Assembly: GCA_027263115.1 (NCBI GenBank)
Contig: GCA_027263115.1_3656.1
Source: a phage
Strand: one strand, 5' to 3'
DNA length: 64,000 nucleotides
Shown here: positions 1 to 60,989 of the stretch, piece by piece
Position numbering within the stretch: the first letter of the stretch is position 1
Layout of the letters: each line of letters starts with the position of its first letter
Program-made: the position numbers and the translations under genes
The notes under the pieces: model-generated
The model's database searches: none
Told to the model about the DNA's origin: nothing
What the model saw: the letters and a program-made list of their open reading frames with translations, nothing else

Positions 1-263
1 ACACCGATGCGGAAAACAATATCTGCTGGGAGTTCGAAACTGAAGATATCCATAAACTTTTCACCTTCCTAGGTATTAAGGTTGAGGCCAAGTTTGAAGA
101 AGGCGAGTGCGACGATTGTGGATTCTACGAGGTAACAGATTTCTATCTCCCAAGTGGTGAGAACCTTTACTATGAAAGCCACTTCGGCAACTCAAATATG
201 CCACAAGGTTGGGATGAGTTTTTTGAAATTGCGGAAGAGGAGCTGACATACCGTGATTATTGA
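1..263 (+). CDS. hypothetical protein, C-terminal fragment (gene begins upstream of window)
   Basis: Open frame from window edge to TGA at 261-263, no internal stop. Confidence 0.45.
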   Translation, partial: TDAENNICWEFETEDIHKLFTFLGIKVEAKFEEGECDDCGFYEVTDFYLPSGENLYYESHFGNSNMPQGWDEFFEIAEEELTYRDY

Positions 264-57430: not shown

Positions 57431-57526
57431 AATATTTTCTTGACAAACTTTGCTTAACAGTGTAATATTGTAAACATGGTCTCCCACCTTTTCTGGCGGC
57501 TAAGGTGTAAAAGAAAGCCACCCAGT

Positions 57527-57605: not shown

Positions 57606-57692
57606 GGGGAGTTATCCCGTAGAGGTAGCGGTGTAGACTGTAAATCTATTGTCATTGCGACTCGGGTGGTTCGACTCCACCACTCCCCACCA
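57606..57692 (+). tRNA. tRNA-Tyr (anticodon GTA), long variable arm
   Basis: Acceptor GGGGAGT/ACTCCCC, anticodon loop CTGTAAA, T-loop TTCGACT, CCA; 87 nt. Confidence 0.65.
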
Positions 57693-57805: not shown

Positions 57806-57896
57806 GGAGGGTAGGGAGCAATGGTGCTCAAGCGGTCTTGAAAACCGTCCCATTGAGGATGACTCGATGATGGTTCGATTCCATTACTCTCCGCCA
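57806..57896 (+). tRNA. tRNA-Ser (anticodon TGA), long variable arm
   Basis: Acceptor GGAGGGT/ACTCTCC, anticodon loop CTTGAAA, T-loop TTCGATT, CCA; 91 nt. Confidence 0.65.
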
Positions 57897-57994
57897 CATT
57901 GTTGACCTTGTAATTAAGCGAAAGCCGGAAGCAGAACCGGATTATCAAATGTTACAGTCGTCATCGCCGACTAGCAACATGGTCAACATACTGA

Positions 57995-58093
57995 GCTAGG
58001 TAAGCCCTTTGGCAAGGGCGAGGATTTTTAATCCTGAAAATAGACGAGGTAGTCGTTGAATACATAGATGGTTCGATTCCATCACCTAGCACC
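57995..58093 (+). tRNA. atypical tRNA-like element (possible tRNA-Lys TTT with about 25-nt insertion, or pseudo-tRNA)
   Basis: Perfect 7-bp acceptor GCTAGGT/ACCTAGC, canonical T-arm GATGG-TTCGATT-CCATC, D-arm GCCC/GGGC, TTT-containing loop; about 99 nt; no encoded CCA. Confidence 0.35.
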
Positions 58094-58098
58094 TTTTT

Positions 58099-58174
58099 GC
58101 TGATGTAGCACAATTGGTAGTGCAATTGATTTGTAATCAATAGGTTGCAGGTTCAAGTCCTGCCATCAGCACCA
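58099..58174 (+). tRNA. tRNA-Thr (anticodon TGT)
   Basis: Acceptor GCTGATG/CATCAGC, D-arm GCAC/GTGC, anticodon loop TTTGTAA, T-loop TTCAAGT, CCA. Confidence 0.75.
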
Positions 58175-58175
58175 T

Positions 58176-58250
58176 GGCCCTGTAGCTGGAAGGTTCAAGC
58201 AAGCGACTCATAATCGCCAGACGGTGGTTCAATTCCACCCAGGGCCACCA
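58176..58250 (+). tRNA. tRNA-Met or tRNA-Ile2 (anticodon CAT), elongator-type
   Basis: Acceptor GGCCCTG/CAGGGCC with paired 1-72, anticodon loop CTCATAA, T-loop TTCAATT, CCA. Confidence 0.65.
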
Positions 58251-58261
58251 AATAGTAGATA

Positions 58262-58338
58262 CTCCGCGTAGCTCAGCTTGGTAGAGCGCCTGATTTGGGA
58301 TCAGGAGGTCGAGTGTTCGAATCACTCCGTGGAGACCA
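58262..58338 (+). tRNA. tRNA-Pro (anticodon TGG)
   Basis: C1-G72 acceptor, D-arm GCTC-AGCTTGGTAG-AGC, anticodon loop TTTGGGA, T-loop TTCGAAT, CCA. Confidence 0.75.
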
Positions 58339-58384
58339 CTTTCAGTTATACTTTAAACATATACAAACAAAAGGAACCTTTAAA

Positions 58385-58654
58385 ATGTATACACTTAAAA
58401 TTGTAGAGCGTGTGAATCCAACCCATACCGTAGATTTTCGTGACGATTTCAATCCTCTGGCTGTAAATCTTCGAGAGTCATATCATGAACTCAGCTGCGA
58501 TGCAGTGGTGGTCTTTTTTGAAGACAACTCTGAAGGGGCGGTAGCTTGTGTTGTTGATAGTGAGCAGAAGTTTTATATTTACAGAGATGTAGATGCATAC
58601 TTGATGAATGAAAATGCAGTTACTGTTAGAATCATCCACCGAGTGCCTCGATAA
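58385..58654 (+). CDS. hypothetical protein
   Basis: ATG after AAAAGGAACC (track ORF 58295 trimmed). Confidence 0.5.
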   Translation: MYTLKIVERVNPTHTVDFRDDFNPLAVNLRESYHELSCDAVVVFFEDNSEGAVACVVDSEQKFYIYRDVDAYLMNENAVTVRIIHRVPR

Positions 58655-58707
58655 GTATTAGTCTCCTTTTAGTTAGTTTCGATCTATTTAGGTTACTCAA
58701 TTTTAAC

Positions 58708-58745
58708 CCGCCCCGTTAGCTGTATAGCTGCGGGGTTTTTTCGTT
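58708..58745 (+). terminator. rho-independent terminator
   Basis: CCGCCCCG...CGGGG hairpin followed by TTTTTTCGTTT. Confidence 0.6.
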
Positions 58746-58759
58746 TCTGGAGCCTTAAA

Positions 58760-59158
58760 ATGATTTCAGGTTTAACATGGCTGAGTAGGTATAGAGGGAT
58801 CATAAAAGGTTTAGTTTTTGCAGCGGCTATAGGTGCAGCTTATCTTGGGGCCGTGTATTGGTTTAACTCTAAGCTTAATGATGCCTACCAAGAGGGTGTG
58901 TCAGCAACAGAGTTAAAGTGGGAACGGATCCTTGATCAGCAACAAAAGCAGGCCGACAAAATTAAAATGGGCCACGCAGAGGAGGTTAAAAACCTTGAAA
59001 AATCTCTTTCTGATTTGCAGGATAAATTAAATATAGCTGAGAGGGCAGGTAGAGAAAAGCAGATTATTTACCTCCAATCACCTGAAGGTAAGAAGTCAAC
59101 ACTTCCTGATCAGCTTATAGATATTTATAATGAGAGTATCAATCAGGAGGATCGATGA
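58760..59158 (+). CDS. i-spanin (Rz-like: N-terminal TM helix plus coiled coil)
   Basis: 132 aa; TM segment LVFAAAIGAAYLGAVYWF then helical region; ATGA coupling with next gene. Confidence 0.6.
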   Translation: MISGLTWLSRYRGIIKGLVFAAAIGAAYLGAVYWFNSKLNDAYQEGVSATELKWERILDQQQKQADKIKMGHAEEVKNLEKSLSDLQDKLNIAERAGREKQIIYLQSPEGKKSTLPDQLIDIYNESINQEDR

Positions 59159-59442
59159 GAGTTGCTACACTGTTTATTGCGTGCTTGTTATTATGCGGGT
59201 GTGCAACCAGTGTTGAGAAAGAATACAAGATTGACCCTCCAGATGTAGGAAGGTTGATTGTTAAACCCCCAGAAGGTGCCATGAAACCACCTGCTAAAGC
59301 TATGCCTTTGAAGAAAGGTGCGCCAGATGCAGTGAACTCTGGCATTATGAGGGATAATAATCTGTCTTGTAGCAATGATAGAGCTAAATTGATCATTTTG
59401 CAAGACTATATTAGAACACTGTTTCCAAAGGAGAGAGGTTAA
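59155..59442 (+). CDS. o-spanin (Rz1-like proline-rich lipoprotein)
   Basis: 95 aa; signal with LLLCGC lipobox-like site; Pro-rich DPPDVGRLIVKPPEGAMKPPAKAMP; SD CAGGAGGA. Confidence 0.6.
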   Translation: MRVATLFIACLLLCGCATSVEKEYKIDPPDVGRLIVKPPEGAMKPPAKAMPLKKGAPDAVNSGIMRDNNLSCSNDRAKLIILQDYIRTLFPKERG

Positions 59443-60989
59443 TGTCTAAGATTTACGGACCGTGTTCTGAAAAGCAGAAGATGATCCTAGAAAACGATGC
59501 AGATATTTTGGTAATCGGCGGTGCCGCAGGGTCTGGCAAGTCGTTCCTCTTGCAGTTGATGCCACTTAAAATTATTGATGACCCCCACAGCTCTGTGGTT
59601 ATGTTCCGAAGAACAACCCCACAGTTGGAAGGTGAGGGTGGACTATGGCCTAAAGCAGTAGCTATTTATAGTGATCTGCCTGAAAACATTAAGCCAAAGT
59701 TCAGAGAGAAGGATCATAAGTTCATTTTTCCACGGTTTGATCCGAACACTGGCAAGTGGGATAGGAGCAAAAAGGGAGCTGTTGTAAAATACTGCCACAT
59801 GGAGTATGTACAAGATAAGCTTAACCATCAAGGGCTTGAGTACACCATGGTTTGCTTCGATGAGGGAACGCAGTTCGAATGGGAGCAGATAGACTATCTG
59901 ATGTCTCGTCTGCGATCTCAGTCAAAGTATCCATCAAGAATGGTTATCAGCTGTAACCCCGATTCAGAACACATGCTTGCCAAACTGGTTAGATGGTGGT
60001 TGGACGATGAAGGGTATCCAGATCCGGAGAAATGCGGTAAGAAAAGATATTTTATCCGACGCGACGGTGAATTTATTTGGGGAGACTCTAAGGAAGAGTT
60101 GATAGAGAAATACACCACGGTTAACGGACTGGGTGTAGAGATCAAGCCAAGACCGTTGTCATTCTCGTTCATAGGCGCAACAATATTCGATAATCCTGTC
60201 TGTTTGAGAGACAACCCAGAATACCTTGCTTTCCTCGAAGGTCTACCAGAGCTGGAAAAAGCTCAGCTTCTCCATGGTAACTGGTTTGCAAAGCCTGAGG
60301 GTGCAAACTATTTTCAAAGATCTTTCCTTCGTGATGCCGATAGAGTACCCCTTGGATCAGTATCTTGCAGGGCATGGGATAAGGCAGGAACCGAGAGAAC
60401 TTCCGGCAATAAATTTCCTGACTTTACTGCCAGTATTAAGGTAAGTAAAGATAGCGACGGCTTTTATTACCTGTCAGGGGATTATTGTCCTGAAAACGTG
60501 GATGACGGGAGGTATTCCACAGGTCTGGAAGGCAAGTTCTGTAAAAAGGCTGGTGAACGAGATGTGATCATCAGGAAACAGGCGCAGTTTGATGGTGATG
60601 ATTGTATAATCGTATTCTCTGTGGACCCCGGTCAGGCAGGTAAGAGTGAGTTCTTAACCTCATCCAGATCCTTGCTCGCAGAAGGGTTCAGGGTTGAAGA
60701 AGATCCAATGCCTTCCAACAAGTCTAAACTGACAAGGTTCTCACCTTTTGCCAATCTTGCCCAACAAGGGATGGTGAGGATTGTAAAATCCAGTTTCCAT
60801 CCTGATACTCTGGAAGCATTTCTGACCGAACTTGAAAAATTCAACGGGGAAAGATCAACATTTAACAGAAAAGACGACTGGGCTGACTGTGTAGCTTCTG
60901 CAATTAATTTCCTGGAGAAAGAGGAGGTAGCACTTCCTTGTGTGATTCCATCAATCTCATCACCCTCTATGTTCAAGCGTTTTATCTAA
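59442..60989 (+). CDS. terminase large subunit
   Basis: 515 aa; N-terminal Walker A VIGGAAGSGKSF; position before portal gene; ATGA coupling with o-spanin. Confidence 0.8.
   Translation: MSKIYGPCSEKQKMILENDADILVIGGAAGSGKSFLLQLMPLKIIDDPHSSVVMFRRTTPQLEGEGGLWPKAVAIYSDLPENIKPKFREKDHKFIFPRFDPNTGKWDRSKKGAVVKYCHMEYVQDKLNHQGLEYTMVCFDEGTQFEWEQIDYLMSRLRSQSKYPSRMVISCNPDSEHMLAKLVRWWLDDEGYPDPEKCGKKRYFIRRDGEFIWGDSKEELIEKYTTVNGLGVEIKPRPLSFSFIGATIFDNPVCLRDNPEYLAFLEGLPELEKAQLLHGNWFAKPEGANYFQRSFLRDADRVPLGSVSCRAWDKAGTERTSGNKFPDFTASIKVSKDSDGFYYLSGDYCPENVDDGRYSTGLEGKFCKKAGERDVIIRKQAQFDGDDCIIVFSVDPGQAGKSEFLTSSRSLLAEGFRVEEDPMPSNKSKLTRFSPFANLAQQGMVRIVKSSFHPDTLEAFLTELEKFNGERSTFNRKDDWADCVASAINFLEKEEVALPCVIPSISSPSMFKRFI

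Follow-up and report, generated by a model that had tools for sequence, protein, structure and literature searches.

An atypical 99-nt element in the tRNA operon of an rV5-like coliphage is a real, selected, L-shaped RNA gene that is specific to the rV5-like phages of the Vequintavirinae, and the family of tRNA-shaped RNAs to which it belongs is previously undescribed. The element lies within the window, by which we mean the whole 64,000-nt stretch of phage DNA analysed here (contig GCA_027263115.1_3656.1 of assembly GCA_027263115.1), and its features favour a tRNA mimic over a tRNA that decodes in the ordinary way. By exclusion, we infer that it is a non-decoding mimic, made from a tRNA operon, whose role is to decoy host factors that bind tRNA, for example the tRNA-cleaving nucleases of anti-phage defence, and we place the probability of this reading at roughly 40%.

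A conserved cloverleaf with a remodelled variable region

The first-pass annotation of this DNA had described a perfectly paired 7-bp acceptor stem, a D arm, an anticodon-like loop bearing UUU, a T arm nearly identical to that of the neighbouring tRNA-Ser and about 25 extra nucleotides that include a 5-bp hairpin and 9 unpaired residues. All of these are present in the arrangement below, and the T arm agrees with that of the adjoining tRNA-Ser at 16/17 positions.

57995..58093, + strand: whole tRNA-like gene, 99 nt (ARAGORN, Rfam tRNA model and our own covariance model, R1)
57995..58001, + strand: 5' strand of the acceptor stem, GCUAGGU, forming 7/7 pairs with ACCUAGC at 58084-58090
58002..58003, + strand: positions 8-9, AA; A8 is invariant (alignment A2), as against U8 of canonical tRNAs
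58004..58019, + strand: D arm, GCCC-UUUGGCAA-GGGC, with G18 and G19 in the loop
58020..58020, + strand: invariant G joining the D stem to the anticodon stem, read as position 26 or as position 27 of a G.G mismatch
58021..58035, + strand: anticodon-like arm, 15 nt, read as AGGA-UUUUUAA-UCCU (4 bp and a 7-nt loop with UUU) or as AGGAU-UUUUA-AUCCU (5 bp and a 5-nt loop)
58036..58066, + strand: variable region, 31 nt (5' linker, hairpin and 3' linker), ~26 nt above a class I variable loop
58036..58042, + strand: 5' linker, GAAAAUA, 7 nt unpaired; GAAAA is invariant in the family (A2 columns)
58043..58057, + strand: variable-region hairpin, GACGA-GGUAG-UCGUU, 5 bp; a hairpin occupies the same place in the variants
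58058..58066, + strand: 3' linker, GAAUACAUA, 9 nt unpaired; AAUACAUA and the next G49 are invariant in the family (A2 columns)
58067..58083, + strand: T arm, GAUGG-UUCGAUU-CCAUC, 5/5 pairs with covariation at 51:63 and a canonical T loop
58084..58093, + strand: 3' strand of the acceptor stem (ACCUAGC), discriminator A73 and CC

The element had also been said to lack an encoded CCA, which holds for the final A but not for the CC that follows A73; a complete U73-CCA is present in the genes of the orthologues from Seunavirus, Mydovirus and Henunavirus. A spacer of 5 nt (UUUUU) separates its 3' end from tRNA-Thr.

The minimum free energy structure is the cloverleaf (-34.8 kcal/mol, z = -4.03), a stability reached by 0/200 shuffles, and RNAalifold independently recovers the same fold. 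RNAalifold also predicts an alternative D arm with a 6-bp stem and a 4-nt loop, whose two additional U-A pairs are invariable across the variants and carry no covariation signal. ARAGORN, proposed as a check in the first-pass annotation, places an atypical call, "tRNA-???(atcc)", at exactly 57995-58093. A covariance-model match as a normal tRNA had been named there as evidence that would speak against an atypical element, and RF00005 does match positions 57995-58091 at 37.5 bits (gathering score 29), but by way of a 26-nt insertion and one deleted anticodon-stem position, and the Seunavirus (KE22) and Mydovirus (KB57) copies are missed by this model at E <= 0.1. The Av-05 and L105 copies match only tRNA-Sec in Rfam, below threshold, and an Rfam E-value scan of the tRNA cluster placed no family outside the tRNA clan on the element. 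Our own model R1 scores the window copy at 107.3 bits, family members at 97.7 or more and ordinary tRNAs at no more than 28.

Across 26 distinct variants, all of the helix cells are paired (520/520 over 20 pairs; slid controls, 34-47%), and 10 of the 20 pairs show compensatory changes, among them acceptor positions 1, 3, 4 and 6 and three of the four D-stem pairs. All 12 acceptor and T-stem pairs are formed in the 26 variants, with covariation, such that the helix is 7/5 throughout. The tertiary elbow pair 19:56 (alignment columns 18 and 90) is G19:C56 in 17 variants and U19:A56 in 9 and is never broken. Complete pairing and compensatory change, including that at 19:56, make a chance fold untenable and identify an RNA whose L shape is under selection, as a pseudo-tRNA in decay would not be; the pseudo-tRNA put forward in the first-pass annotation does not stand, as the cloverleaf, elbow pair and variable-region module are held by selection across five genera. 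The core is nonetheless unlike that of canonical tRNAs, with A, U and U invariant in the family at positions 8, 14 and 15, where the near-universal U8, A14 and R15 are absent.

Conservation within the molecule is highest in the two linkers of the variable region. GAAAA and AAUACAUAG do not vary, and the hairpin between them takes 19 distinct sequences of 18-27 nt, nearly all of which form hairpins of up to 10 bp (three are weak, with 3-4 bp; RNAfold), including compensatory replacements such as GACGA/UCGUU to GACGG/CCGUU. The linkers, 5-7 nt on the 5' side and 8-10 nt on the 3' side across the family, are single-stranded in every predicted fold. A tRNA with an insertion is thus structurally correct as a description, though the added residues are more than passive filler. 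A purely architectural role could account for linkers that do not vary. Pairing between them (AUGUA/UACAU), suggested by the alignment of L105 to tRNA-Sec, is not kept in other variants. An intron or mobile insertion was rejected, the module being far below group I intron size and more conserved than the tRNA body, and it is confined to this gene, with no second copy in 82 pattern-matched viral loci. A role at the DNA level (a minus-strand promoter or small ORF) was likewise rejected: linker spacing varies over 18-27 nt, no gene lies on the minus strand, and the covariation of the helices speaks for RNA.

A close structural comparison is with the class II bacterial tRNAs (Ser, Leu and Tyr), which share the 7/5 acceptor/T helix, canonical T loop, G18-G19 elbow, location in tRNA operons and an additional paired arm that follows the anticodon arm and precedes the T arm. 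In these tRNAs, only 1-2 nt connect the extra arm on either side, whereas the element has invariant linkers; their anticodon arm is 17 nt long with U/A/R at 8/14/15, whereas that of the element is 15-16 nt with A/U/U. A canonical variable region has 4-5 nt, or a directly joined hairpin of ~10-24 nt, in contrast to 31 nt with linkers of 7 and 9 nt here.

Linkers that never vary, and for which no variant has predicted pairing, would also suit a small base-pairing RNA carried on a tRNA scaffold, in which GAAAA and AAUACAUAG are seeds for a conserved host or phage RNA and the tRNA shape gives only RNase P processing and stability. The carrier phages span E. coli, Salmonella, Klebsiella, Cronobacter and Erwinia, and any such target would therefore need strong conservation. 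Exact complements of the linkers are absent from the window except on the element's own opposite strand, one-mismatch complements are not enriched in it (13 found vs 17.9 expected), and the sole match noticed there, 6 nt at the start of a downstream ORF, is at chance level. A pure seed carrier, moreover, would need neither the conserved elbow tertiary pair nor an acceptor end, and we consider this explanation improbable.

Distribution, operon context and dispensability

The family comprises one orthologue per genome in five genera of the Vequintavirinae (Vequintavirus, Avunavirus, Seunavirus, Mydovirus and Henunavirus). The family has 12 matches in IMG/VR and 18 in metagenomes, and none in 185,579 bacterial species genomes; a search for distant relatives by way of a neighbouring protein returned two close relatives only. 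The carriers number ~170 or more sequenced phages of the type used in therapy, in which the element is mostly unannotated or inconsistently labelled, the public labels being none, tRNA-Lys, tRNA-OTHER or tRNA-TERM. Our literature search found no paper on the element.

A promoter-like site, TTGACA-17-TAATAT, lies upstream at 57440..57468 (+) and corresponds to the annotated P(tRNA) of rV5; between it and the element there is no terminator-like site besides the element's own D arm. The neighbours of the element differ by genus, being tRNA-Ser and tRNA-Thr in rV5, tRNA-Thr and a structured RNA in Av-05, and an Ile-like tRNA and a structured RNA in Seunavirus. Neighbouring proteins were dismissed as candidate partners, all being of unknown function, spanins or terminase. 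The element is naturally deleted in phage V18, and in JES2013 only the final ~30 nt of the query find a match; it is dispensable for growth in V18 and probably in JES2013, as is typical of accessory or counter-defence genes.

Dispensability in these phages, embedding in the operon 5 nt upstream of tRNA-Thr and omission from the tRNAs counted in the original rV5 annotation and paper would all be compatible with an element that acts in cis on the tRNA operon (as an RNase P or RNase E entry site or a structured spacer, the free RNA itself having no function) or with a hitch-hiking tRNA pseudogene. We give this explanation little credence: it leaves the invariant linkers, the 100% pairing, the 10 compensatory pairs and the covariation at 19:56 unexplained, and the neighbours in the operon change between genera.

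The anticodon-like arm and decoding

The anticodon-like arm is 15 or 16 nt long in 26/26 variants and never 17, and an invariant G flanks its stem on both sides. In the window, a 7-nt anticodon loop needs a 4-bp stem, and C25 is separated from the first linker A by 17 nt, as against 18 expected, such that either N26 is missing, with G.G at 27:43, or the stem has 4 bp. The loops differ by genus (UUUUUAA in the window; UUUAUAA; the 6-nt C[A/C/U][U/G]CCA, e.g., CAUCCA; and [C/U]AUCAAA, e.g., CAUCAAA), and A33 replaces U33 in most orthologues; the adjoining orthologous tRNA-Thr, by contrast, retains its YUUGUAA loop. The family loops resemble host anticodon loops bearing disabling changes: the window copy matches E. 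coli tRNA-Lys at 10/11 positions over 30-40, the Seunavirus loop is that of glyT with U33A and position 38 deleted, and the Henunavirus loop is that of selC with U33A. Compared with rV5, the Av-05 lineage has A35 for U35, U/C73 and no CCA, features that do not make a coherent Ile identity, and keeps the scaffold fully. Seunavirus and Mydovirus phages also carry canonical tRNA-Gly(UCC) and tRNA-Lys(UUU), so the element fills no decoding gap there. An arm that is non-canonical and differs by genus in an otherwise conserved molecule argues that the conserved function is anticodon-independent, and the tRNA-like decoy listed among the options of the first-pass annotation would fit this pattern best. 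Since the shape and module are conserved and the anticodon loop is not, we propose that the element is not a normal decoder.

The window lineage itself counts against a mimic: its loop is the canonical 7-nt Lys loop (U32, U33, UUU, A37 and A38), accompanied by A73 and CC at the 3' end, and rV5-like phages have no other tRNA-Lys. These features underlie the main rival explanation, namely that in rV5-like phages the element is a nuclease-resistant replacement tRNA-Lys(UUU) that would be charged by LysRS and decode AAA/AAG once PARIS AriB, PrrC or RloC has cleaved the host tRNA-Lys. An altered upper anticodon stem and a bulky module would make it uncleavable, and the family would be an "armoured" chassis on which the anticodon is swapped between genera. 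Consistent with this, window positions 30-40 match E. coli tRNA-Lys at 10/11 positions, and the pairs that differ (27:43, 28:42 and 29:41) surround the AriB cut site between 40 and 41. ARAGORN detects no other tRNA-Lys in the cluster of the window, several GenBank records label the element tRNA-Lys, and the small tRNA set of rV5, Tyr(GUA), Thr(UGU) and this Lys-like gene, corresponds to the published targets of retron-Eco7, OLD/PARIS and PARIS/PrrC. PARIS is neutralised by the tRNA-Lys of T5 (PMC11464382), and a phage tRNA-Thr whose 27:43 pair is disrupted withstands P2-OLD while remaining able to decode (PMC12445682). Phage tRNAs can thus function with 27:43 broken, and a weakened anticodon stem alone does not exclude decoding. 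The element shares with these resistant tRNAs its place in a phage tRNA cluster, changes in the anticodon stem near the cut sites of Toprim nucleases with a weakened 27:43, and the isoacceptor types, Lys(UUU) beside Thr(UGU). They are otherwise canonical, 76 nt long and demonstrated to decode, in contrast to the remodelled core and 26 extra nucleotides of the element, whose orthologues bear other, partly non-functional-looking loops.

Several features weigh against a replacement tRNA-Lys, including the 17-nt rather than 18-nt spacing and the A8, U14 and U15 of the core. To our knowledge, a 31-nt variable region with single-stranded linkers of 7 and 9 nt occurs in no functional elongator tRNA. 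LysRS, like other class II synthetases, approaches its tRNA from the side of the variable loop, and the module may therefore block charging. Orthologues in sister genera with 6-nt loops, A33 or incoherent identity sets keep the scaffold, which means that the conserved function cannot be Lys decoding. On balance, we regard a replacement tRNA-Lys as somewhat unlikely.

The Henunavirus-type variants, with a CAUCAAA loop, U73-CCA and the annotation tRNA-TERM, raise the further possibility of a special-purpose recoding tRNA. Such a tRNA could suppress stop codons (UCA, in Erwinia phages), promote frameshifting by means of a 6- or 8-nt loop, or serve as a tRNA-Sec-like adaptor whose module is read by a dedicated factor. 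Odd loop sizes are known from frameshift suppressors, and tRNA-Sec (RF01852; selC) is the best Rfam match of these variants, their loop differing from the CUUCAAA of selC by one change. The long extra arm is also tRNA-Sec-like, as the D arm would be if it took the 6-bp form with a 4-nt loop. The L105 copy scores 40.9 bits, the best of the family, and the Av-05 copy 29.4, both below the gathering score of 47, and the window copy fits RF00005 better; global similarity of the element to selC is non-specific. tRNA-Sec has an 8/5 helix (13 bp), G73 and UCA in a canonical loop, whereas the element has a 7/5 helix with U73 or A73, the window copy carrying UUU with A73 and the Henunavirus-type variants carrying UCA with A33, in place of U33, and U73. 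Membership in tRNA-Sec was rejected on the helix, the missing G73 and the score. The long ORFs on the L105 contig bear no sign of recoding, and a link to programmed frameshifting in rV5 was discarded, the terminase "join" being an intron with an HNH endonuclease and not a frameshift. A recoding tRNA is accordingly very improbable.

Proposed decoy function and known RNA classes

We hypothesize that the mimic would be transcribed within the phage tRNA operon and presumably released like a tRNA, by an RNase P cut at G1 and 3' trimming to N73-CC(A), with the final A repaired by the host CCA-adding enzyme. Its fold would be L-shaped, with the acceptor/T-arm helix and D-loop/T-loop elbow of a canonical tRNA around a remodelled core (A8, U14, U15, an anticodon stem flanked on either side by an invariant G, and an anticodon arm that falls short by 1-2 nt), in which the variable loop would be replaced by the invariant module GAAAA-variable hairpin-AAUACAUA. 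In this form it may bind host proteins that recognise tRNA shape non-productively, the most plausible targets being tRNA-cleaving anti-phage nucleases (the PARIS AriB/OLD Toprim class and PrrC-like anticodon nucleases), such that real tRNAs would be spared; in the window lineage, the lower anticodon arm would imitate host tRNA-Lys(UUU). A catalytic nuclease is hard to titrate with a decoy unless binding is tight, which counts against such a role. Defences that cleave tRNA are widespread. In the AriB study, its authors raise the possibility that AriB is inhibited through competition from some viral tRNAs (PMC12409363). Against a decoy, the phage tRNA-Thr that rescues from P2-OLD left the host tRNA unprotected and therefore acts by replacement, not competition (PMC12445682).

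Other tRNA-shaped RNAs offer partial parallels. Allo-tRNAs and other irregular tRNAs have long variable arms and widely varying anticodons, are in some cases encoded by phages and have been proposed as suppressors and/or regulatory RNAs (Mukai et al. 2017, PMC5389517); membership was rejected, as allo-tRNAs are defined by 8/4 or 9/3 helices and serine identity and the element is strictly 7/5 with its own linker module. A tmRNA was likewise rejected, the 3:70 pair being U-A, C-G or A-U, not G3:U70, and ARAGORN reporting no tmRNA. Bacillus cereus tRNA-Other and the Y-RNA-like YrlA are small RNAs that copy the acceptor, T arm and elbow, are not standard decoders and act through protein binding or regulation, yet neither matches the element in sequence or model, and its module and phage-only distribution differ. 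For YrlA in particular, there is no match on the element at E <= 1 (a 25-bit sub-threshold match falls on the adjoining true tRNAs) and no Ro-binding helix. The T4 tRNA cluster encodes "species 1" and "species 2", stable small RNAs of unknown function that are co-transcribed and processed with tRNAs; no complete cloverleaf bearing an inserted module is described for them. Descent from one specific tRNA was not upheld: in global alignment, neither the phage tRNAs nor lysT, glyT and selC of E. coli gave a specific match.

It is possible, if rather unlikely, that the family forms an unrecognised class of phage noncoding RNA, a tRNA mimic on a class II or tRNA-Sec-like chassis with an invariant module and deliberately disabled loops (U33A, loss of position 38 and a short arm), which would serve across the Vequintavirinae to decoy or inhibit either host immunity directed at tRNA or some other factor that binds tRNA.

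With the covariance model, or with GAAAA-hairpin-AAUACAUAGGNGGTT as a signature, the annotation of these phages can already be corrected. Part of the current view of phage tRNA genes is that they are counter-measures to tRNA-cleaving immunity (PARIS, OLD, PrrC, retron-Eco7 and Schlafen), and the known cases are ordinary tRNAs with few protective substitutions, whereas this family has a disabled-looking anticodon arm and an added module that is its most conserved part. As a decoy, the element would be an anti-defence factor made of RNA and would put the tRNA fold to a new use; if it decodes, it would widen the range of functional tRNA forms and provide a nuclease-proof tRNA chassis.

The element and its genomic setting

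ARAGORN calls six ordinary tRNA genes clustered in the window, and among them lies a further, tRNA-like element. The order is Arg-UCU, Tyr-GUA, Ser-UGA, element, Thr-UGU, Met-CAU, Pro-UGG.

Features of the window discussed here (element sequence 5' to 3')
57440-57468: sigma-70-like promoter, P(tRNA) in the rV5 annotation
57606-57692: tRNA-Tyr
57806-57896: tRNA-Ser
57897-57994: spacer of 98 nt separating tRNA-Ser from the element
57995-58093, + strand: element, GCUAGGU-AA-GCCC-UUUGGCAA-GGGC-G-AGGAUUUUUAAUCCU-G-AAAAUA-GACGA-GGUAG-UCGUU-GAAUACAUA-GAUGG-UUCGAUU-CCAUC-ACCUAGC-A-CC
58036-58066: variable region of the element, including the linkers
59442-60989: terminase ORF

Reading the sequence at these coordinates bears out each item of the first-pass annotation, which had described a tRNA-like element with about 25 extra nucleotides; its "no encoded CCA" holds for the terminal A, but A73-CC is encoded. 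At minimum free energy the element folds as a cloverleaf with an extra hairpin (-34.8 kcal/mol, z = -4.03); 0 of 200 shuffles reach this energy. ARAGORN returns tRNA-???(atcc), and the covariance-model check that the annotation had proposed does give a tRNA match above threshold (Rfam tRNA, 37.5 bits; gathering score 29), but only by way of a 26-nt insertion and the deletion of one anticodon-stem position.

The region of the element is 99% identical to rV5-like coliphages (genus Vequintavirus). The element is unannotated in the rV5 reference record and is not among the six tRNAs of the rV5 genome paper (PMC3606486); other records label it tRNA-Lys, tRNA-OTHER, tRNA-???(atcc) or tRNA-TERM, or not at all. 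No terminator-like site lies between the promoter and the element, which is therefore expected to be co-transcribed with the tRNAs.

The general tRNA model fits this phage's class II tRNAs poorly too: tRNA-Tyr scores 29.9 bits, just over the Rfam threshold of 29, and tRNA-Ser goes unreported at the gathering threshold, its best match being tRNA-Sec (41.2 bits, under that family's threshold of 47). The spacer is closed by an 8-bp stem (UGUUGACC/GGUCAACA) and holds predicted internal hairpins (z = -2.76); it may be another small structured RNA of the operon. About 18 GenBank records of "Campylobacter phage" (MG0656xx), without any annotation, are 99% identical to rV5-like coliphages over the tRNA cluster, and either their host labels are wrong or the sequences are contaminants, probably. 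The window's terminase ORF is uninterrupted (515 aa), unlike the rV5 large terminase gene (record 58027-60872), which an intron carrying an HNH homing endonuclease divides into three pieces.

A family conserved in shape and remodelled in detail

BLAST and pattern scans recovered orthologues of the element in five genera, plus uncultured relatives.

Orthologues and anticodon loops
Vequintavirus (window): UUUUUAA
Avunavirus (Av-05, 18-1-2): UUUAUAA
Seunavirus (PVP-SE1, 4MG, KE22, Cronobacter phages) and Mydovirus (Klebsiella phages KB57, DP, KPP-1): C[A/C/U][U/G]CCA, 6 nt
Henunavirus (Erwinia phages Hena1, pEp_SNUABM_01) and relatives: [C/U]AUCAAA

A covariance model built on the 26 distinct variants and scanned over 816 kb scores members at 97.7-116.8 bits, one per locus, and all ordinary tRNAs at no more than 28 bits. 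We found the signature AATACATAGRNGGTTNGATTCC in 12 contigs of IMG/VR and in 18 from metagenomes; among 185,579 species genomes of bacteria and archaea, none has it. Most records leave the Seunavirus and Mydovirus copies unannotated because both ARAGORN and Rfam miss them, and our literature search found no paper describing the family.

Across these 26 sequences, standard pairs fill all 520 cells of 20 tested base pairs, half of which (10/20) vary at both partners; the alignment's covariation score, 0.439, compares with 0.166 in shuffles, and sliding the partners by 1-3 columns lowers pairing to 34-47%. Covariation extends over acceptor pairs 1, 3, 4 and 6, three of four D-stem pairs, anticodon-stem pair 27:42 and T-stem pair 51:63. 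D-loop G19 forms a tertiary Watson-Crick pair with T-loop C56; this pair becomes U19:A56 in nine sequences and is broken in none. RNAalifold independently obtains the same cloverleaf, adding two invariant U-A pairs that would extend the D stem to 6 bp and leave a loop of 4 nt. The maintained pairing, the 19:56 switch and the RNAalifold cloverleaf together show that the L-shaped elbow matters. The same observations, with the compensatory changes, rule out a decaying pseudogene, and the pseudo-tRNA option of the first-pass annotation falls in that sense.

The element differs from canonical tRNA in its core nucleotides, its anticodon arm and the architecture of its variable region. A8, U14 and U15 are invariant where tRNAs carry U8, A14 and R15. 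An invariant G flanks the anticodon stem on either side, and the arm between them measures 15 nt in the Vequintavirus, Avunavirus and Henunavirus types and 16 nt in the Seunavirus and Mydovirus types, the canonical 17 nt occurring in 0 of 26 variants. A33 replaces the universal U33 in most family loops; the neighbouring orthologous tRNA-Thr keeps YUUGUAA in all genera. The variable region comprises an invariant GAAAA, a hairpin, an invariant AAUACAUA and then G49. The hairpin takes 19 different sequences of 18-27 nt, nearly all of which fold as such in RNAfold (three weakly), with compensatory changes such as GACGA/UCGUU to GACGG/CCGUU. Its sequence varies while the linkers do not, which makes the linkers the best-conserved portion of the RNA; inside it they lack any consistent partner for pairing, and no complement to them is enriched within the window. 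The linkers include the triplets AAA and AAU-ACA, codons of tRNA-Lys(UUU), tRNA-Asn(GUU) and tRNA-Thr(UGU), the reported targets of AriB (PMC12409363), which may be a coincidence of A-rich sequence.

Among known classes, the element resembles class II tRNAs and tRNA-Sec, and may work like both. The family lacks the 8/5 helix, G73 and threshold score of tRNA-Sec and the 8/4 or 9/3 helix of allo-tRNA, which excludes both assignments, and the defining features of tmRNA and YrlA are likewise absent from the element. Each of the minor alternatives conflicts with at least one tested feature: a small RNA that carries a seed on a tRNA scaffold; a cis-acting processing element or a pseudogene; and a tRNA for recoding (suppressor, frameshift or Sec-like).

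Other unusual genes lie near the orthologues. Directly 3' of the element in Avunavirus (Av-05, L006, ~1100-1295) and Seunavirus (KE22, L004, ~1605-1796), a region of ~190 nt has a predicted fold that is long, closed and multibranched (z = -3.5 and -3.7, respectively). It holds pieces resembling tRNA (the 5' start of an acceptor/D arm, an anticodon arm of Pro-like type with UGG or CGG, an odd T arm) and has no Rfam match; it may be either a structured RNA in its own right or a tRNA-like gene whose D loop has an insertion of ~110 nt. In Seunavirus and Mydovirus, the gene immediately upstream of the element resembles tRNA-Ile(GAU) (L004 1419-1494; L015/L016 ~1424-1498; L079 5383-5457) and has a non-canonical loop, ACGAUUC (C33, U37) in Seunavirus and the 6-nt ACGAUA in Mydovirus, where ARAGORN calls tRNA-???(ga). 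PVP-SE1 (L078, 5994-6079) has a tRNA-Lys(UUU)-like gene, called tRNA-???(ggca) by ARAGORN, with an insertion of ~11 nt between D arm and anticodon stem. Uncultured relatives with the UCA-loop variant carry a CUA-anticodon tRNA (L105 7862-7934, L114 2791-2865; ARAGORN "Pyl", Rfam tRNA 61.9 bits) whose sequence suggests an amber suppressor; no sign of recoding appears in the long ORFs observed on L105. In phage V18 (L007, ~950-1047), a natural deletion has removed tRNA-Ser and the element's 5' two-thirds, so that the tRNA-Tyr 5' half now joins the remaining 3' part of the element at a GUCG(U) microhomology; in JES2013, the match is likewise confined to the last ~30 nt of the query (3' end of the element and spacer).

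Likeness to host tRNAs and a proposed role as tRNA mimic

Three E. coli tRNA sequences, each 100% identical when checked against 5,426 genomes, were compared with the family. The window's arm agrees with tRNA-Lys at 10 of 11 positions from 30 to 40 (G30, A31, U33-U36, A37, A38, U39, C40) and differs at 27:43, 28:42 and 29:41; that part of the stem holds the AriB cut site, which falls between positions 40 and 41 (PMC12409363; PMC11464382). A73 is also common to both. The Seunavirus/Mydovirus loop is the glyT loop with U33A and position 38 lost, and these copies share G1:C72, C2:G71 and U73-CCA with tRNA-Gly. The Henunavirus loop is the selC loop with U33A (best Rfam match tRNA-Sec, 40.9 bits, under the threshold of 47). 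The Avunavirus copy, with UAU, U/C73 and no CCA, lacks a coherent identity. A canonical tRNA-Gly(UCC) is present as well in Seunavirus and Mydovirus phages, and a canonical tRNA-Lys(UUU) in Mydovirus phages, so the element is not needed there for decoding.

The main rival, which we consider somewhat less probable than the mimic reading below, is that the element of the rV5 lineage is a working, nuclease-resistant tRNA-Lys(UUU). The window's loop is fully canonical, A73 suits LysRS identity, rV5-like phages have no other tRNA-Lys, and their small set of Tyr-GUA, Lys-like and Thr-UGU tRNAs corresponds to the known targets of retron-Eco7, PARIS/PrrC and OLD; a phage tRNA-Thr with a broken 27:43 pair, moreover, both resists P2-OLD and decodes (PMC12445682). 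Against this, one nucleotide is absent at the junction of D stem and anticodon stem, the core differs from that of tRNAs, and lineages whose loop cannot decode conserve the scaffold just as well. LysRS is a class II synthetase, which approaches tRNA on the side of the variable region, and the very large variable module would be expected to face it.

The tRNA shape, acceptor end, remodelled core and linker module are conserved over five genera and the decoder-defining part varies; the common function is therefore anticodon-independent. The best-supported reading, to which we give a probability of roughly 0.4, is an excised tRNA mimic that engages tRNA-binding proteins, all of its functional steps (excision, engagement, targets) being ones that we infer. 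The RNA would be cut out of the operon in tRNA fashion and would occupy tRNA-binding proteins without being consumed, tRNA-cleaving defence nucleases being the most plausible targets; its lower anticodon arm would copy one specific host tRNA, which in this window is tRNA-Lys. In function it would come closest to phage tRNAs that resist nucleases and to tRNA-like RNAs that do not decode, among them B. cereus tRNA-Other (PMC5389517). The natural deletion in V18, and probably one in JES2013, shows that these phages can do without the element under laboratory conditions, which supports a mimic since dispensability is usual for accessory counter-defence genes. A mimic also agrees with a proposal in the literature, namely that AriB may be inhibited through competition by viral tRNAs (PMC12409363).
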